From: Thermodesulfovibrionia bacterium
Lineage (GTDB): Bacteria > Nitrospirota > Thermodesulfovibrionia > UBA6902
DNA length: 64,000 bases
Assembly: GCA_945787795.1 (NCBI GenBank)
Contig: CALZJD010000001.1
Location: forward strand, 5,776 to 69,775
Direction: 5' to 3'
Shown here: one piece after another, positions 52,528-64,000 of the stretch
How the letters are laid out: each line of letters begins with the position of its first letter
Position numbering within the stretch: the stretch's first letter is position 1
Position numbers and translations under genes: made by a program
Notes under the pieces: model-generated
Databases searched by the model: none
What the model was told of the DNA's origin: nothing
What the model saw: the letters and a program-made list of their open reading frames with translations, nothing else

Positions 52528-52543
52528 TGTAGGATTTCTTACA
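52528..52543 (-). promoter_or_regulatory. Operator-like inverted repeat TGTAGGA-TT-TCTTACA (site C)
   Basis: TGTAGGATTTCTTACA lies in the 271-bp spacer upstream of the 52384-35246 operon. It shares the 9-mer TGTAGGATT with sites at 62532 and 63589. Confidence 0.35.
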
Positions 52544-58236: not shown

Positions 58237-59615
58237 CTTCCTCCTCTACCGAATAAAATAACTTTCATTGTATCCATCATAATCAGAAAGTCAAGAAAGA
58301 CCGATTGATATTTCATATAGTAGAGATCATATTTCAACTTTTCGACAGCATCTTTCACTGAATCGCCATACTCATGTCTTACCTGAGCCCACCCCGTAAC
58401 TCCCGGCTTAATGCAGTGTCTCTCTGAATAATATGGTATTTGTTTTTTTAGAGTTTCAACGAAAAATGGCCGCTCAGGCCTCGGACCTATAAAACTCATG
58501 TCTCCTCGGATGACATTGAATAACTGGGGGATTTCATCAAGTCGAGTTTTTCTTAAAAAGTTTCCGAGTCTCGTTATCCTACAGTCTCCAGCCTGTGACC
58601 ATACGGGACCGGTATCCTTTTCAGCACAATCAATCATTGTTCTGAATTTATAGACGGTAAATATTTTCTCGCCTTCTCCTATACGTTTCTGTTTAAATAA
58701 AACTGGCCCTTTGGAATCCAGTTTTATGAGAACAGGGATGAAAAAAATAAAAGGCACTGTAATTGCAATACCAAATGCAGCAAACAAGACGTCACATATA
58801 CGTTTTATAAAACTTCGCATAATGGTTATCCTGAATCCATCGGAAAAGATCAGATGGCTTGGATTCATGTTTTCGACAAGCAGTTTTCCAGTCATCTGTT
58901 CATAAAAGGAAGGACCATCAACTATATCTATCCCCTTTAGTTTGCAGTTGAGTATTTCCCTAACAGGAAGATTTCCCCGCCTTTCAGTAAGGGATACAAT
59001 GATCTTCTGAACTTTTTTCTTTAGAGCAACAGCACATAATCTCTCTTCGCTTCCAATTACATTATGTTCAGGGACGTTCACAGGTTCACTCATACATTTT
59101 ATGTATCCTGACAATGCAAAGCCATTGTTGTTGCCGTCAATTATCTTCCCCATGATCATGGCAACCGGTCCTGTACCAAGTATAAGTACGTTTCTACTGC
59201 CAACCGGTAACTCCTGAAAAAAGTCATAACCAATGTGCCATATTGCCTGGAATAAAATTGATATGCACATTGCATAAAGCAATACCCCTCTTCCAAGGAA
59301 TAAAGACTGAACAAAGTAATAAAAAGCAGCAAGTGCAATTGCAGTAATAAATCTGGATAATACTATTTTCGATAGTATCTCCTTTCTGCTAACCTTTTTA
59401 TTACCACTGTATAGTTCTACAAAAAAACAGATAAGCACAATAAAAAACGCAAATGCAATTACCTTTGGCAGAAAGGGATAATATAAATACATATCTTCTA
59501 ATTCGTATTTATAACTGAAATAAAATCTCAAATAAATGCCGGCATAAGCTGAAACTATAGAAATTATGAAATCTCCTATCATTAACATAATATATCTTGG
59601 TAATAAGAATTTCAT
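58233..59615 (-). CDS. Polyprenyl glycosylphosphotransferase (EpsB/WbaP-type initiating sugar transferase)
   Basis: 460-aa ORF with N-terminal TM helices and a central Rossmann-like region. The C-terminal bacterial sugar transferase domain reads RICDVLFAAFGIAITVPFIFFIPVLIKLDSKGPVLFKQKRIG...YKFRTM...RLDEIPQLFNVIRGDMSFIGPRP. Confidence 0.9.
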   Translation of the reverse strand: MKFLLPRYIMLMIGDFIISIVSAYAGIYLRFYFSYKYELEDMYLYYPFLPKVIAFAFFIVLICFFVELYSGNKKVSRKEILSKIVLSRFITAIALAAFYYFVQSLFLGRGVLLYAMCISILFQAIWHIGYDFFQELPVGSRNVLILGTGPVAMIMGKIIDGNNNGFALSGYIKCMSEPVNVPEHNVIGSEERLCAVALKKKVQKIIVSLTERRGNLPVREILNCKLKGIDIVDGPSFYEQMTGKLLVENMNPSHLIFSDGFRITIMRSFIKRICDVLFAAFGIAITVPFIFFIPVLIKLDSKGPVLFKQKRIGEGEKIFTVYKFRTMIDCAEKDTGPVWSQAGDCRITRLGNFLRKTRLDEIPQLFNVIRGDMSFIGPRPERPFFVETLKKQIPYYSERHCIKPGVTGWAQVRHEYGDSVKDAVEKLKYDLYYMKYQSVFLDFLIMMDTMKVILFGRGGR

Positions 59616-62383
59616 TTAATACCTAGACCTGCCAGTAACTTTTTTGCTTCATTAAATTCAGGAAACTTGGAGTCACGTCCCATCTTGATTGCTCTTTCGA
59701 GCTGTTCCTCGGTTTTCTTAAACATCCCCTTTTTATGATATGTCAGAGCTAAATGATAGCGAATTGTCGGTTCATCTGGAAGATATTGAGAAGCTTCTAT
59801 AAAATTCTTCAGAGCATCTTCATAATTTCCACTTTTGTATAAAACCCAACCTAATGTATCATTTATGCGTCCATCTCTGGGAGCTAACTTCTTAGCCCTT
59901 TGAGCCATAATTATTGCCTTTTCAGAAGGGCCATATCCTTCAGCATACAGGAAGGCAAGATTATTCAAGGCAGGGACATAATCCGGAAAAAGCTCCAGAA
60001 CTTCATTATACTTTTCAAGAGAAGGCTTCTTCTTTCCCATCCTCTCTAATATTGCTGCCTGATAAAAATATACTTCAACATTATCGGGATTGGATTTTTG
60101 AATCTTCTCAAAAATATCAAGAGCTTCTTGCAGCTTATTAACTGCAATATATTCCTTGCCGAGCAGGACTTTTGTTTTTATGTTTGATGGATTAATTTTT
60201 TCCGCTTTCTTTAGTGCATCGATAGCATCATTCTGCTTTCGGGACGAGATATATACGTGAGCAAGCAACTGGTATCCATATTCGTTTCCAGGTACCTCGG
60301 AAATTATTTCTTTAGCGGTTTTCTCTGCTTCCCGGTAATCCTTTTCTTTCATGTAAAGATCTGTCATACGGCCCAGGACAACTGCCCTGTTTTTTGTGTC
60401 CGCTAAAAGTGACCTGAACTCTTTTATTGCGCTTTCGTACTCACCCATAACAGCATATAAACCTGCCAGTCTTTCTCTTCCTCTCTCTCTGGAGAGAGAG
60501 GTCATTTCTCTATACAGGGAAATAGCTTTTTTATATTCCTTATTGGCTGTGTAAATCTGTCCTTTCATGTCCATAACGTTTATGTTCTTTGAATCAAGCT
60601 GTAACGCTTCATCAAGAACTTCAATGGCTTTATTGCTGGCTCCATTTCTTTGATAATACCCGGCAAGTGATATATATGTTATTGATTTGTTCTGTTCCTT
60701 TGCTTTCATGTAATAAGAAAGAGCTTTTTCATTATCTTTTTCTGCTTCCAGGATCGCTGCCAGCATCAGCAGTGCCGGAACATTGTCTTTCTCCAGATCA
60801 AGGACCCGCTCATAAACCGTAATCGCCTTTTCTTTTTCATTTGACTTCATGTAAAACAGGCCAAGATTTAAATAAGGAAGCACATACTCTGAATTGGCAG
60901 CTATTGCCTTTTCAAAATGCTCAGCAGCATTATCCATATCTTCAGCTCCAAGATATGCTGTTGCCATTATACTATAGAGAATCGCGTCGTCATGATTCTC
61001 TTTCAAACCTTCATTTAATGTCCTGATTGCATCCTCGTATTTCTTATTTTGAATGTAATACTTGGCTAATATGATCCTTGAATTAAGCATGTCAGGTGCT
61101 ATCTCAACGGCACTGAGAAATTCCTTTTCAGCTTTATGGGGATTGCCTGTCATCAGATTAAAGGCTCCTTTTTTTATGCGAGGATCAATAAGCTCAGGGT
61201 TAAGCTCAATTGCCCTGTCAAACTCTGCTAAAGCAAGATCATTTTTACCAAGTGATAGATGAACGTTTCCAAGCAGGTTGTGAGCAAACGCATTCTTCTC
61301 ATCTATTGCCAGGACCTCTTGTATCTCTCGTTCAGCCTCTTCATCACGCCCTTTTTTTAGGTGTGCAACGGCGAGTAATAAGCGTGACTGCAGAATGTCA
61401 GGTTGCAAATCAATCACTCTCCTGAAGGCACTTGTGGCCTGCTCCAGATCTTCATTGGAAAGATGGCATAATCCAAGATAGTAATATGCACCGGGGATAG
61501 ACGCATGTTTAAGAGATTCCAGAAGTGAGGTTATCGCTTCGTCAATATTTCTCTCATGGAAATACACCAGACCCATAAGATAAGGACCTTCCGGCCTGTC
61601 CCTGTATTCATCTTTAAGGTCTATTGCTATAGCTTTTGCTTTATCAATATTTTTCTTACGGATGTACGTGAAACCTAATTTCAAACGGGCATTAATATCT
61701 TTACCGTCTATTTCAGTTATTCTTTGATACGTTTTAATGAGTTCATCGACCTGATGCTGTTTATTATGTATTTCTGCAAGGACATACAGGGCAGCTTTAT
61801 TCTCTGCTTCTTTTGAAAGAACCTGATGTACGATCTTATCCGCCCTTGAAGTTTCCCCTTTTCTAAGATAAACATCTGCCAGCATAATCCTTGAAGATGT
61901 TCTCCCAGGAGACATTTTAATTGTTTTAGATAAGATGTCTTCTGATTTCGCGTAATCTTTTTTTGCTAAATGCGCGGCTGCAGCTAACTCGTGAGCCTCT
62001 GGATTGTTCTCATTGACAAGCAGGTACAGATTTATCTCGTTTAAAGAGTTATCAATTTCCCCTTTTTCAAGATATATCCTTGCAAGAGATATATGTGCTT
62101 CATGGAATGAAGGACTTAGCAGTAAAACTTTGTGCAGCTCTTTTTCTGCCGATTCATATTTTTCCTGTACCATATATGTCAATGATAATTTGTACCTTGC
62201 CTCAACATAGTCATGATCTTTTTCAATAGCTTTCCTGAAAGCAACTATTGCCCCATTTGGATTTCCTTTATTAAAAAAATAGAGACCTTTTTCGTAATAC
62301 TGGTTCTTACTTATCTCCTGACTACTACAACCACTAATTAATACTGCGACAATCACATAAAATATGACTAACAAATAACGCAT
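59612..62383 (-). CDS. prsT: PEP-CTERM-system TPR-repeat lipoprotein (PrsT-like)
   Basis: The likely start is Met7 at 62383 (GAGGGG upstream); the track ORF starts at 62401. MRYLLVIFYVIVAVLISGC is a lipoprotein signal with an LISGC lipobox. The rest consists of TPR-like repeats. An ATGA overlap links it to the downstream transferase gene. Confidence 0.85.
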   Translation of the reverse strand: MRYLLVIFYVIVAVLISGCSSQEISKNQYYEKGLYFFNKGNPNGAIVAFRKAIEKDHDYVEARYKLSLTYMVQEKYESAEKELHKVLLLSPSFHEAHISLARIYLEKGEIDNSLNEINLYLLVNENNPEAHELAAAAHLAKKDYAKSEDILSKTIKMSPGRTSSRIMLADVYLRKGETSRADKIVHQVLSKEAENKAALYVLAEIHNKQHQVDELIKTYQRITEIDGKDINARLKLGFTYIRKKNIDKAKAIAIDLKDEYRDRPEGPYLMGLVYFHERNIDEAITSLLESLKHASIPGAYYYLGLCHLSNEDLEQATSAFRRVIDLQPDILQSRLLLAVAHLKKGRDEEAEREIQEVLAIDEKNAFAHNLLGNVHLSLGKNDLALAEFDRAIELNPELIDPRIKKGAFNLMTGNPHKAEKEFLSAVEIAPDMLNSRIILAKYYIQNKKYEDAIRTLNEGLKENHDDAILYSIMATAYLGAEDMDNAAEHFEKAIAANSEYVLPYLNLGLFYMKSNEKEKAITVYERVLDLEKDNVPALLMLAAILEAEKDNEKALSYYMKAKEQNKSITYISLAGYYQRNGASNKAIEVLDEALQLDSKNINVMDMKGQIYTANKEYKKAISLYREMTSLSRERGRERLAGLYAVMGEYESAIKEFRSLLADTKNRAVVLGRMTDLYMKEKDYREAEKTAKEIISEVPGNEYGYQLLAHVYISSRKQNDAIDALKKAEKINPSNIKTKVLLGKEYIAVNKLQEALDIFEKIQKSNPDNVEVYFYQAAILERMGKKKPSLEKYNEVLELFPDYVPALNNLAFLYAEGYGPSEKAIIMAQRAKKLAPRDGRINDTLGWVLYKSGNYEDALKNFIEASQYLPDEPTIRYHLALTYHKKGMFKKTEEQLERAIKMGRDSKFPEFNEAKKLLAGLGIK

Positions 62384-62510
62384 TAATGATTCCCCTCGCA
62401 ACTCCCGTCCCTCAGAGTGAATAAGGATAATATTCTATTTATGTAAGTTATGATATATAACAGTGAAATGCTGTATGTAAAAGTTTATTACGTAGAGTAT
62501 GTATTTGGGT

Positions 62511-62572
62511 ATCAGGGTAACCTGATCTTTGTGTAGGATTTTTTATATTCATTTGTAGGGATAACCTTACAT
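62511..62572 (-). promoter_or_regulatory. Operator-like cluster upstream of prsT (site A)
   Basis: A perfect palindrome ATCAGG-GTAA-CCTGAT lies at 62511-62526. It is followed by TGTAGGATT (62532-62540), 12 nt, and TTGTAGGGATAACCTTACAT (62553-62572), which contains the inverted repeat TGTAGGG-ATAA-CCTTACA. The cluster lies 131-190 bp upstream of the prsT ORF. Confidence 0.4.
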
Positions 62573-62697
62573 ATATTACCGCTGAAAGATGTAAGAGACA
62601 CTAGTGTTAGAGGAAGTTACATATCTAAGAAATACTGAACAAATGCGGATTTTCAGTAAAGCCTGGCAAAATCATTAATAACAGCGTATTGAGTTTT

Positions 62698-63348
62698 TTA
62701 TTTATTCAGCTGCTCTACAATACGGTTATTGATTGTATATTGTATAAGCTGGGCAATGTTCTTCATTTTTAATTTATTCAATATTCGGGATCTATAGGTA
62801 CTTATTGTTTTATCACTCAGAGACAGTTCCATAGCAATTTGTTTCACACGCTTCCCTGATGCAGTCATACACATCACCTCATACTCGCGGGCAGAGAGAG
62901 TCTCATGCGGGGCTTTCCTTTCGTCAGTCCTTATATAAAGAGCTAATCTGTTGGCAAGTGAGGCACTGATATACTTTTTCCCTGCCAATATTTTATGTAC
63001 AGCGTTAACAAATTCATCATGTTTAGATGCTTTCGTGAGGTATCCTGCAGCACCTGCCTTTAATGCCCTGACCGCAAATTGCTCTTCCGGATACATGCTT
63101 AGTATAAGAACCTGCAGATCCGGCCTGAAGTTTTTGAGTTGTTTTAATATATCAATACCGTTTCTTCCCGGCATTGATATATCCAGCAAAACCATATCAA
63201 ATTCATTCCCGCTTATTTTTTTCATAACTTCCGACCCATTGCTCGCTTCCTCAATATCATATTTGTCGGGCATGTCCGACAAAATCTGCTTAATCCCTTT
63301 ACGGAATATTTCGTGATCGTCAGCTATGAGTATTTTTGCACTAAGCAC
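62698..63348 (-). CDS. Response regulator, NarL/FixJ (LuxR-type HTH) family
   Basis: 216-aa ORF. The REC domain has KILIADDHEIFRKG and MVLLDISMPGRNG (phospho-acceptor Asp). The C-terminal LuxR HTH reads LSAREYEVMCMTASGKRVKQIAMELSLSDKTISTYRSRILNKL. Confidence 0.9.
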   Translation of the reverse strand: MLSAKILIADDHEIFRKGIKQILSDMPDKYDIEEASNGSEVMKKISGNEFDMVLLDISMPGRNGIDILKQLKNFRPDLQVLILSMYPEEQFAVRALKAGAAGYLTKASKHDEFVNAVHKILAGKKYISASLANRLALYIRTDERKAPHETLSAREYEVMCMTASGKRVKQIAMELSLSDKTISTYRSRILNKLKMKNIAQLIQYTINNRIVEQLNK

Positions 63349-63588
63349 ACATGATCTTTTCTTTTTAACTTTTAAAAAGCTTAGGCATATGATTAAATCT
63401 GTTTACATTATCATCACAAATAAAATATCGGTAAGTTTAGAGATAAATATATTTCATAACTATCAACTGACTATACATAAATATTTTTGTGTAATTCAGA
63501 CGTTATTAGATTAATGAAAGAACATGCTTATTACCGAAAGCATAATATAACTTGTACTTTTCGCGCTATCAGATACGCCTGAATTTTT

Positions 63589-63630
63589 TGTAGGATTACT
63601 AATTTATAATTTGTGAGGAATGCCTTACAT
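63589..63630 (-). promoter_or_regulatory. Operator-like motif upstream of the response-regulator gene (site B)
   Basis: TGTAGGATT (63589-63597), 13 nt, then TTGTGAGGAATGCCTTACAT (63611-63630). The 9-mer is identical to site A and the 20-mer matches it at 15/20 positions, in the same orientation relative to the downstream gene. Confidence 0.4.
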
Positions 63631-63716
63631 GATAAGAACCAGGCATTTATGCAGAGTATGTTACAAAATTTTACATACAAACAGGTTATAAAAGAGACAA
63701 TAATTAATTCTCTACA

Positions 63717-64000
63717 TTATGCATCAGGCTGATTAATGAGATCATTCTGTATTGCATAATGTATTAATTGAGCAATATTATTCATATTCATCTTATTCAG
63801 AATACGGGCTCGATAGGTGCTGATCGTCTTATCACTCAACGCCAGTTTCATCGCGATTTGTTTTACAGATTTCCCTGTGGCCGTCATACACATAACCTCA
63901 TATTCACGATCTGAGAGAGTTTCGTGAAGAGCTTTATTATTATCTTCCTCAACGTAGCACGCTATTTTGTCGGCAAGAGATGGGCTAATGTATCTTTTCC
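63717..64000 (-). CDS. Second NarL/FixJ (LuxR-type) response regulator, C-terminal fragment (gene starts beyond the right edge)
   Basis: My translation is ...KRYISPSLADKIACYVEEDNNKALHETLSDREYEVMCMTATGKSVKQIAMKLALSDKTISTYRARILNKMNMNNIAQLIHYAIQNDLINQPDA*, with the stop at 63719-63717. It is clearly paralogous to 62698-63348. Confidence 0.8.
   Translation of the reverse strand, partial: KRYISPSLADKIACYVEEDNNKALHETLSDREYEVMCMTATGKSVKQIAMKLALSDKTISTYRARILNKMNMNNIAQLIHYAIQNDLINQPDA

Follow-up and report, generated by a model that had tools for sequence, protein, structure and literature searches.

Similar sites upstream of prsT and of an adjacent NarL-type regulator gene are copies of a composite element, putatively a promoter module, around a Gac-box-type site in a Nitrospirota genome

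Why should a gene of an EPS core operon and the gene for a neighbouring LuxR-type regulator be preceded by closely similar sequences? Within the window, that is, the whole 64,000-nt stretch of DNA analysed here, all genes at this locus lie on the minus strand, so that one sequence (site A) is upstream of prsT and the other (site B) upstream of RR1. prsT (59612–62383, minus strand) encodes the TPR lipoprotein of the XrtA/PEP-CTERM system (TIGR02917, 563.9 bits; cut-off 312.2) and heads the EPS core operon, in which EpsB (TIGR03013, 505 bits) comes next. The listed prsT ORF begins at a TTG at 62401; the likely start is the ATG at 62383, judging from the GAGGGG ahead of it and from the signal peptide of a lipoprotein, both read from the sequence. 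RR1 (62698–63348, minus strand), the target of site B, encodes a response regulator of the NarL/FixJ type whose recognition helix resembles that of GacA/UvrY and which is itself a candidate binder; its paralog RR2 (63717–64000, minus strand) runs past the window to C1:70136. The original prediction described the shared sequence as a 41–42-bp motif made of a 9-mer and a 20-mer, preceded at site A by a palindrome. The 9-mer TGTAGGATT is indeed found at 62532–62540 and 63589–63597, the spacers are 12 and 13 nt long, the 20-mers (62553–62572 and 63611–63630) agree at 15/20 positions, and the palindrome ATCAGGGTAACCTGAT is present at 62511–62526.

The similarity is thus real, but the motif as described is too short. 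It spans ∼72 nt (62502–62573 vs 63559–63632), and both sites are confirmed as copies of a real composite element of ∼75 bp, which has the layout of a promoter module with three sites, takes in the palindrome and a −10 box, and is built around a Gac-box-type site. Read in the sense of the downstream gene, it begins with an 18-bp inverted repeat, TGTA(A/G)G-N6-C(C/T)TACA, followed by a CCTACA half-site (the 9-mer) whose site window is centred 22 bp past the repeat, and by a second dyad, ATCAGG-N4-CCTGATA (the palindrome), centred another 22 bp on. In element A (minus strand), the distal repeat TGTAAGGTTATCCCTACA occupies 62554–62571, the middle half-site AATCCTACA (62532–62540) is centred 22 bp downstream of it, and the proximal dyad GATCAGGTTACCCTGATA lies at 62510–62527; a candidate −10 hexamer, TAAACT (62482–62487), follows 22 nt past CTGATA. 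Element B (minus strand) has the distal repeat TGTAAGGCATTCCTCACA (plus strand TGTGAGGAATGCCTTACA; 63612–63629), the same middle half-site (63589–63597), and, as its own counterpart of the palindrome, the proximal dyad ATTCAGGCGTATCTGATA (63567–63584), with two candidate −10 hexamers within 63539–63549: TATGCT at a spacer of 22 (63539–63544) and TATATT at a spacer of 17 (63544–63549). RR2 has its own copy, element C, outside the window (C1:70326-70396). Among the 14 copies aligned, from this genome and its relatives, the TACA core of the middle half-site is invariant, and the half-sites and the 22/22-bp phasing (23 bp in two or three copies) persist despite divergence of the spacers.

How far the resemblance exceeds chance was assessed with a hidden Markov model (HMM) trained without sites A–D, on five other copies from the same genome and five from relatives. 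Scanned against the whole 3.0-Mb Nitrospirota metagenome-assembled genome (MAG), it recovered copies A–D with E values of 1e-10 to 1e-15 (A, E = 1.4e-11; B, E = 3e-10), the best non-member having E = 0.049, and the A/B resemblance is therefore far beyond chance. The 9-mer by itself is weak evidence: it occurs four times in the window, where 0.82 would be expected, and 22 times in the genome, which is about the expected number by our own composition estimate. It is on the composite element that the significance rests. In total, the genome holds nine copies of it; as contig C240 and the end of contig C1 are variants of one another at 91% identity, eight of these count as independent. A 16-bp dyad, TGTAGGATTTCTTACA, at 52528–52543 of the window, which had been proposed as a third site, is not a member (4.2 bits, E = 2.5; neither proximal dyad nor −10 box), and a shared 11-mer, TAGGTTATTCG, was set aside as coding sequence or coincidence.

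All composite copies are intergenic (a crude mask assigns ∼84% of the genome to coding sequence), and all are co-oriented with the downstream gene, which for protein-coding genes begins 70–320 nt away; the next ORF after copy E is ∼700 nt off. The downstream genes are those for prsT/EpsB-EPS, for three tandem NarL-type response regulators, for two PEP-CTERM (PF07589) proteins, for two secreted Cys-rich proteins (MopE/DUF4215), and for a GT4 and GT2 glycosyltransferase pair; both top TIGR02595 PEP-CTERM matches of the genome carry the element. This distribution bears on whether the element has a function at all, since one might see in it a relic of a tandem duplication of a regulator gene with its 3' flank, or else a small mobile repeat dispersed in the genome. 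Each of A and B does follow a gene for one of the paralogous regulators, and tandem duplication therefore probably copied the element locally. We nevertheless regard a non-functional repeat as very improbable: there are unlinked copies on four other contigs ahead of functionally coherent genes, half-sites and phasing have outlasted the divergence of the spacers, orthologous copies exist in other genera and phyla, and the flanks beyond the element are unrelated except in the strain variants C and D. With only 8–9 copies, diverged spacers, and fixed orientation and gene distance, the element also lacks the hallmarks of a MITE/REP-type dispersed repeat.

Downstream of the proximal dyad, a TAnnnT box resembling a −10 element is found 21–22 nt past CTGATA in 14/14 copies (background 0.056 per position), a consistency by which CTGATA comes immediately before the −35 region; a reading in which it is itself the −35 hexamer, with a 17-nt spacer, fits copies B and H only. 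The −35 hexamers are poor (1–4/6 vs TTGACA). With a start assumed 7 nt past the −10 box, the sites would have their centres near −88, −66, and −44, the last lying over the −35 region, and transcription from element A would start near 62475, ∼90 nt before the prsT ATG. On this placement, the sites would not sit in long leaders, as had been supposed, but upstream of the promoter and outside any transcribed leader. Other promoter types fit poorly. A Bacteroidetes-type −33/−7 promoter on the plus strand does not agree with the spacing read from the sequence, and a σ54 promoter within the element was rejected on wrong GG/GC spacing, with no match in any element-bearing promoter. Nor is there a σ54 GG-N10-GC site between element and gene at any of the 14 elements; the sole match with two mismatches lies ∼320 nt into the stretch downstream of element A, at about the prsT start or beyond it. 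Perfect σ54 matches do exist in this genome, at three class-2 PEP-CTERM genes. In public sequencing runs, the sequence was found in DNA metagenomes only, at a low share, and in 0 RNA runs.

Two palindromes capable of forming hairpins, situated downstream of regulator stop codons, could also denote structured RNA, be it a leader, an sRNA, or an element that terminates or stabilises the transcript of the upstream regulator gene, and a simple scan does call the plus-strand hairpin at 62511–62526 terminator-like. We give this reading hardly any weight. The palindromes show no more covariation than shuffled alignments do (0.134 vs 0.120 ± 0.019), variant positions disrupt pairing and do not compensate, neither hairpin is followed by a U-tract on the sense strand, and no Rfam match was found near any copy. 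Copies E, F, and I have lost intact hairpins but kept the sequence blocks, a conserved −10 box lies downstream of the element, and across phyla it is the half-site sequence, not just the ability to pair, that is kept. The genome encodes CsrA, but the Rfam search found no Csr/Rsm-type sRNA gene as a direct target near any copy; a CsrB-like sRNA in the 700-nt gap past copy E was considered and rejected (GGA not enriched when counted by eye, no Rfam match).

The distal repeat points to a known class of site. The Gac box has the consensus TGTAAGN6CTTACA (PMC3171408, PMC11837529), to which the distal repeats conform at 10–12 of 12 positions in 11/14 copies (11/12 in both A and B); those of G021 and G002a, from relatives, are perfect matches. 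At E. coli csrB, UvrY footprints an 18-nt repeat, TGTGAGAGATCTCTTACA, with which the distal repeat of element B shares 14/18 positions, and the same promoter has an extra half-site, TGTAGGAGA, as well as a second point of crosslinking close to −35 (PMC4682653). The two systems thus share the inverted repeat, alike in half-sites and in spacing, and its position upstream of the core promoter, together with an additional TGTAGG-type half-site and a second contact near −35, and by analogy the presumed binder here would likewise be a NarL/FixJ-type regulator with a K-T..Y-R.R helix. They differ in layout, in that the csrB repeat lies near −183 and is assisted by IHF whereas the present repeat stands in a compact arrangement, at about −88 and followed by two phased sites; in targets, which are protein-coding EPS, PEP-CTERM, and regulator genes and not Csr/Rsm sRNAs; in the kinase, which is of the HisKA_3 (NarX/UhpB-like) and not of the tripartite BarA/GacS type; and in host, the Gac/UvrY system being known from gammaproteobacteria (BarA-UvrY, GacS-GacA) and the present host being a member of the Nitrospirota. 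A literature search for TGTAGG/CCTACA half-sites with response regulators returned primer sequences only. The half-sites may also resemble those of EvgA, a likeness that we do not use as evidence.

For the spacing of the three sites, the closest parallel is the Bordetella regulator BvgA, which in its phosphorylated form binds PfhaB at −88.5, −66.5, and −44.5, 22 bp apart, best at the site farthest upstream and weakest next to −35 (PMC9708447). The module shows the same three-site NarL-family layout, with sites two helical turns (22 bp) apart, the best one farthest upstream and the last adjoining −35, at positions (−88/−66/−44) that depend on the assumed start. It differs in that BvgA uses 14-bp TTTCCTA-type heptad palindromes, whereas here TGTARG/CYTACA half-sites are set in an 18-bp frame, the middle site is a half-site only, and the proximal site is strongly conserved instead of degenerate. 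The proximal dyad also allows the opposite reading, namely that the adjacent regulators bind as repressors, the dyad blocking RNA polymerase at −35 and the regulon being switched off on phosphorylation. Its overlap with −35 is a position that NarL-family repressors also use, but the combination of a poor −35 with a good −10 is typical of activator-dependent promoters, and a high-affinity site near −88 with phased sites down to −44 matches the activating layouts of BvgA and UvrY (PMC9708447, PMC4682653). Repression is in our view unlikely.

Which protein reads the module? RR1, RR2, and a third regulator, RRb, encoded on contig C240 just upstream of the window beside a HisKA_3 kinase, carry an identical recognition helix, LSDKTISTYRxRIL, in which the UvrY residues K-T..Y-R.R (K, T, Y, R, R) are kept; overall, the regulators are 31%–35% identical to E. 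coli UvrY. The best-scoring family of RR1 is UvrY/SirA/GacA (NF007018, 168 bits), with RRb at 166 bits, both under the cut-off of 280 bits, so that neither qualifies as a UvrY/SirA/GacA equivalog. The kinase beside RRb fits models of the UhpB/NarQ/LiaS type (HisKA_3) and, by model match, is not a tripartite BarA/GacS hybrid. Because the helix is common to a very large family of regulators, the binder cannot be assigned to one paralog.

In other phyla, too, the dyad lies next to genes for this type of regulator. In Acidobacteriaceae, Desulfuromonadaceae, Geobacter, Bacteroidota, Gemmatimonas, and Ignavibacteriae, a Gac-box-like dyad follows homologous regulator genes, 16–72 nt past their stop codons. 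Of 67 loci, 11 show a match in the 260 nt behind the regulator gene, some eight of these at a distance of 16–72 nt, as against 0 control regions. One Acidobacteriaceae copy aligns to the entire composite model. In three genomes (Acidobacteriaceae, Desulfuromonadaceae), the sole genome-wide match to the dyad plus half-site adjoins the regulator gene, 41–46 nt past its stop, and the reversed control pattern has 0 matches in the same genomes. The same cis-module could still be read, at some or all of its sites, by another transcription factor, or its TGTAGG- and ATCAGG-type half-sites by different proteins: the proximal dyad (ATCAGG/CCTGAT) is unlike the distal dyad in sequence, the distribution of the element departs from that of the nearest regulator orthologs (the same-genus genome G001 has a 67%-identical regulator without an element beside it), and the genome encodes many other HTH regulators. 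We consider a different reader unlikely, given that the family against which these regulators score best has this type of 18-bp repeat as its published site (PMC3171408, PMC4682653), that the sole pattern match in three genomes of other phyla adjoins a homologous regulator gene, and that the elements of G000, G020, and G049 precede regulator genes. The Gac-box dyad, the UvrY/GacA best score, and the cross-phylum linkage thus support the original prediction of an operator for the adjacent dimeric LuxR/NarL regulators, and the presence of an element ahead of prsT-EPS and of each tandem regulator gene agrees with the autoregulation and control of the EPS core operon proposed with it.

Within the family, conservation is patchy. 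Copies do occur in other genera: G020, of a different genus, has a syntenic arrangement (HK-RR-[element]-RR-[element]-XrtA chain-length determinant), and the G049 copy lies ahead of another LuxR-type regulator gene. However, the composite element was found in only 5/50 genomes of the family and is absent beside most regulator orthologs there, which sit in PAS-kinase/regulator operons; the genes behind the two copies in G002 are those for a σ54 activator and an RND pump and do not belong to EPS. Related Nitrospirota genomes instead carry a σ54 PrsR-like activator upstream of prsT. In the system described by Haft et al. (2006) for proteobacterial PEP-CTERM genes, PrsR/PrsK/σ54, the site consists of motif 1 (17 nt, ending in TTTACA), a ∼63-nt spacer, and a σ54 −24/−12 promoter served by an NtrC-type activator. 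That system, too, has a shared module in long intergenic regions ahead of PEP-CTERM/EPS genes and a linked two-component system and PrsT, but the architecture of motif 1 with σ54 −24/−12 is absent from the 14 elements, which have a −10 box and NarL-type regulators in its place. In the present genome, PrsR (TIGR02915) was not found above cut-off (best match 445.7 bits vs 502.6); the genome is 87% complete, so that the absence of PrsR is not proven. In this lineage, the module thus appears to hold the position upstream of prsT that PrsR/σ54 occupies in related genomes.

Taken together, we consider it probable that A and B are activator-dependent, σ70-type promoter modules bound by the adjacent GacA/UvrY-like NarL regulators; the identity of the binder, activation as opposed to repression, and the transcription start are what we infer from site sequence and layout. 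In the mechanism that we propose, phosphorylated dimers of RR1, RR2, and RRb would occupy the distal repeat first, further dimers would then fill the two weaker sites, two turns apart on the same helix face, and the proximal dimer would recruit RNA polymerase. The module would in this way drive prsT with the XrtA-type EPS operon and each tandem regulator gene (by positive autoregulation or in a cascade), as well as the two PEP-CTERM proteins, the secreted Cys-rich repeat proteins, and the GT4/GT2 pair. A wider reading, which we put forward tentatively and rate at somewhat less than an even chance, is that a large NarL-type family with the helix LS.KT[VI]STYR.R, widespread outside Gammaproteobacteria, uses a Gac-box tripartite promoter right after its own gene, and that one Nitrospirota lineage copied this promoter to ∼8 loci, taking over XrtA/PEP-CTERM EPS directly from an ancestral PrsR/σ54 system through three autoregulated tandem paralogs.

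Haft et al. (2006) noted that the regulatory motifs of non-proteobacterial PEP-CTERM systems were still to be found. The element described here is a concrete candidate for such a motif, with a defined regulon, a candidate regulator family, and a putative promoter layout, in an uncultured marine-sediment lineage of Nitrospirota, and the 75-bp model can be used for regulon annotation in related MAGs. It suggests that Gac-box recognition extends beyond the gammaproteobacterial BarA/UvrY-Csr circuits and offers a likely example of a regulatory swap in which, at a conserved EPS locus, a NarL-type activator took the place of a σ54 activator. If the wider reading is true, Gac-type regulation would be ancient and act directly on genes, and the gammaproteobacterial sRNA route would be a derived special case.

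Two look-alike motifs had been described upstream of prsT (59612-62401 as listed, with the likely ATG at 62383; minus strand) and of RR1, a NarL/LuxR-type response regulator (62698-63348; minus strand), and the observation is confirmed: re-examination of the sequence bears out the positions of site A (62532-62572) and site B (63589-63630), the spacers within them (12 and 13 nt), the agreement of their longer segments at 15/20 positions, and the palindrome at 62511-62526. The genes around the two sites all lie on the minus strand, as does RR2, a second regulator whose 3' part is in the window (63717 to beyond 64000). When the two intergenic regions are aligned in gene-sense orientation, the likeness spans ~72 nt, and site B has its own palindrome counterpart (63567-63584).

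The element that contains each site has the sense consensus TGTAGGnTTnnCCCTACAAA - ~11 nt - AAATCCTACAAAAAG - aTCAGGnTTGCCTGATA and falls into three site windows of 18 bp, centred at 22-bp intervals. The distal one is an inverted repeat, the middle one a CCTACA half-site (the 9-mer of the original prediction), and the proximal one a dyad, ATCAGG-N4-CCTGATA (the palindrome of that prediction). Among the copies found genome-wide (lettered A-I), copy I has CCTTACA in place of the proximal dyad, and copies E and F preserve only half of it. A TAnnnT hexamer follows CTGATA by 21 or 22 nt in 14/14 copies from this genome and its relatives (background 0.056 per position), and TAnnnT positions played no part in finding these copies; the hexamer 17 nt upstream of this -10 box matches TTGACA at 1-4 of 6 positions. 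For a transcription start placed 7 nt past the -10 box, the site centres would lie near -88, -66, and -44. A reading of the two palindromes as RNA structure was considered and rejected: over the 14 copies, covariation is not above that of shuffles (0.134 versus 0.120 ± 0.019, with 156/500 shuffles at least as high) and most variant positions in the palindromes break the pairing, there is no Rfam match in the region or around any element copy, no sense-strand U-tract follows either hairpin, and the conserved -10 box is located downstream of the element.

Using an nhmmer profile built from the first six copies, we found nine copies in the whole genome (G000; 3.0 Mb in 349 contigs, 42% GC, 87% complete). 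Three of them, A, B, and C, are on C1, the contig that contains the window (C1:5776-69775), and C lies upstream of RR2 shortly beyond the window end. The others are D on C240, E on C47, F and G on C6, H on C5, and I on C2. Over the C1 end, C240 is a variant with 91.4% identity (C240:1-1015 versus C1:69622-70643, just past the window end), so copy D is a strain variant of copy C, and the difference probably reflects strain heterogeneity in the MAG. C240 runs on upstream into the genes for a third paralogous regulator (RRb, at 854-1498) and for a HisKA_3 kinase (at 1559-2362); with this continuation, the locus order is HisKA_3 kinase - RRb - [C/D] - RR2 - [B] - RR1 - [A] - prsT. A hold-out profile made from copies E-I and five copies from relatives, with A-D left out, retrieves A, B, and C in G000 with E-values of 1.4e-11, 3e-10, and 1.6e-13, respectively, the top non-member being at 0.049. 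The 9-mer TGTAGGATT by itself shows no genome-wide enrichment (22 copies in G000, about the number expected from a composition estimate), with 4 copies in the window versus 0.82 expected. The TGTAGGATTTCTTACA dyad (52528-52543; 16 bp, upstream of a tailoring operon), proposed earlier as a separate third site, does not belong to the element: the composite model gives it 4.2 bits (E = 2.5), it lacks a proximal dyad and a -10 box, and it is at most a degenerate lone site.

Against the published UvrY/GacA box, TGTAAGN6CTTACA (PMC3171408, PMC11837529), the distal repeat agrees at 10-12 of 12 positions in 11 of the 14 copies and is perfect in copies from two relatives (G021 and G002a). UvrY footprints an 18-nt repeat, TGTGAGAGATCTCTTACA, at the csrB promoter, which also carries an extra TGTAGGAGA half-site nearby and, close to the -35 region, a second crosslinking site (PMC4682653). 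This csrB repeat and the plus strand of the site B repeat, TGTGAGGAATGCCTTACA, are identical at 14/18 positions. The top NCBIfam model for the regulators is NF007018 UvrY/SirA/GacA, at 168 bits and so short of the 280-bit cut-off. Alignment with E. coli UvrY gives 31-35% identity and shows no change in the receiver aspartates or in K-T..Y-R.R of the recognition helix. The sequence LSDKTISTYRxRIL is common to all five Nitrospirota paralogs; since the recognition helix is conserved throughout the family, the binder is not assignable to one paralog.

Of 67 loci that encode regulator homologs, drawn from many phyla, 11 have a Gac-box-like dyad (≤2 mismatches) no more than 260 nt past the regulator gene, as against 0 control regions, and ~8 of these 11 dyads are 16-72 nt after the stop codon. 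The dyad-bearing groups are Acidobacteriaceae, Desulfuromonadaceae, Geobacter, Bacteroidota, Gemmatimonas, and Ignavibacteriae. The Acidobacteriaceae copies have the whole layout (repeat, 23 bp to TTCCTACA, 23 bp to GCCTGATAG), and one of them aligns to model positions 3-67. In three of the dyad-bearing genomes (4.1, 3.6, and 1.8 Mb), the sole genome-wide dyad-plus-half-site match falls 41-46 nt after the regulator stop codon, and a reversed control pattern gives 0 matches in the same genomes. These regulator-adjacent dyads are the strongest available argument that the regulator family may recognise this site. Together with the Gac-box match, they support and sharpen the earlier proposal of a putative operator for the adjacent LuxR/NarL regulators and the EPS operon.

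BvgA~P at PfhaB has three sites, centred at -88.5, -66.5, and -44.5 (PMC9708447). There, as predicted for the element, NarL-family sites are spaced 22 bp apart, the best lies farthest upstream, and the last adjoins a weak -35. From this layout, we infer that a regulator would fill the element cooperatively, the distal Gac box first and the site at the -35 region last, and that a sigma-70-type promoter would then be activated; that a regulator binds, that it activates, and where transcription starts are all predictions from sequence. Combining Gac-box recognition with a BvgA-like multi-dimer layout, the element is, as judged from its predicted sites, a new variant of both. That each tandem regulator gene has its own promoter copy implies positive autoregulation or a cascade.

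All copies in G000 are intergenic (crude coding fraction 0.84), and every copy points toward its downstream gene. Copy A precedes PrsT (TIGR02917, 563.9 bits), then a TIGR03013 EpsB and the EPS core; B and C/D precede NarL-type regulators; F and I, PF07589 PEP-CTERM proteins; E and G, MopE-motif and DUF4215 secreted Cys-rich repeat proteins; and H, a GT4 + GT2 glycosyltransferase pair. The top two of 12 TIGR02595 PEP-CTERM matches carry the element. A second PEP-CTERM class of at least nine proteins (tail PEP[IV]SS.LF..GGATLGFRR.RK; contigs C183, C88, C107, C77, C86, C134, C74, C198, and C123, outside the window) is without it. Since three genes of this class have perfect sigma-54 -24/-12 matches upstream (on C86, TGGCATGAGAATTGCA; C74, TGGCATTAAGATTGCA; and C107), G000 seems to run two separate regulatory circuits for PEP-CTERM proteins, and perhaps has two sorting classes; at no element-bearing promoter was a sigma-54 site found ahead of the gene.

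Copy E is followed by ~700 nt without an ORF before the MopE-motif secreted protein (C47:5571-6274); this stretch, which has no Rfam match and, by eye, no GGA enrichment, may represent a long leader or a transcript not yet recognised. G000 also encodes a 76-aa CsrA homolog (C69:11714-11944), and a Csr-type post-transcriptional layer could exist alongside the Gac-box promoters; a scan limited to regions near element copies detected no CsrB/Rsm-like sRNA.

The composite element is present in 5/50 genomes of the family: G000, G002 (same genus; 2 copies), G020 (the MAG 'Nitrospirae bacterium Dive96_bin10.277'; 2 copies), G021 (1 copy), and G049 (1 copy). In G020 the order is syntenic (kinase - RR - [element] - RR - [element] - XrtA chain-length determinant, TIGR03007), and the gene after the G049 copy is another LuxR-type regulator. 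In G002, a complete genome, the genes after the two copies (G002:C1:1465757-1465828 and 1268061-1268117; L010 and L013) are a generic sigma-54 activator, which scores 332 bits with the PrsR model (below cut-off), and an RND-type transporter rather than EPS genes, so regulon content differs between close relatives. Regulator orthologs (≥48% identity) occur in 16/25 sampled family genomes and 0/16 outside the family, and most lie in PAS-kinase/regulator operons without the element. Orthologs in such operons (L024-L032; G019, G008, G015, G018, and others) are at 55-64% identity, and one or two small ORFs of ~110 aa, PilZ-like by eye, often follow. These neighbours hint that the regulator family may have had a c-di-GMP-linked ancestral context.

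True prsT orthologs in six other genomes (G032, G008, G004, G024, G015, and G005; L121-L128), five of the same family and one of a neighbouring family of the same order, have a sigma-54 activator (PrsR-like) and a 125-aa receiver protein upstream; the ~125-aa single-domain receiver lies immediately before prsT, overlapping its start, and the PrsR-like activator is farther upstream. In G000 this position is taken by the NarL-type regulator array, with receiver and PrsR-like genes not seen there. Given the PrsR-like activator before prsT in relatives, and no PrsR match above cut-off in G000 (87% complete), the array and its promoter appear to have supplanted a PrsR/sigma-54 arrangement before prsT. 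The element would represent a predicted direct control of an XrtA/PEP-CTERM exopolysaccharide regulon in Nitrospirota, where relatives use PrsR/sigma-54.
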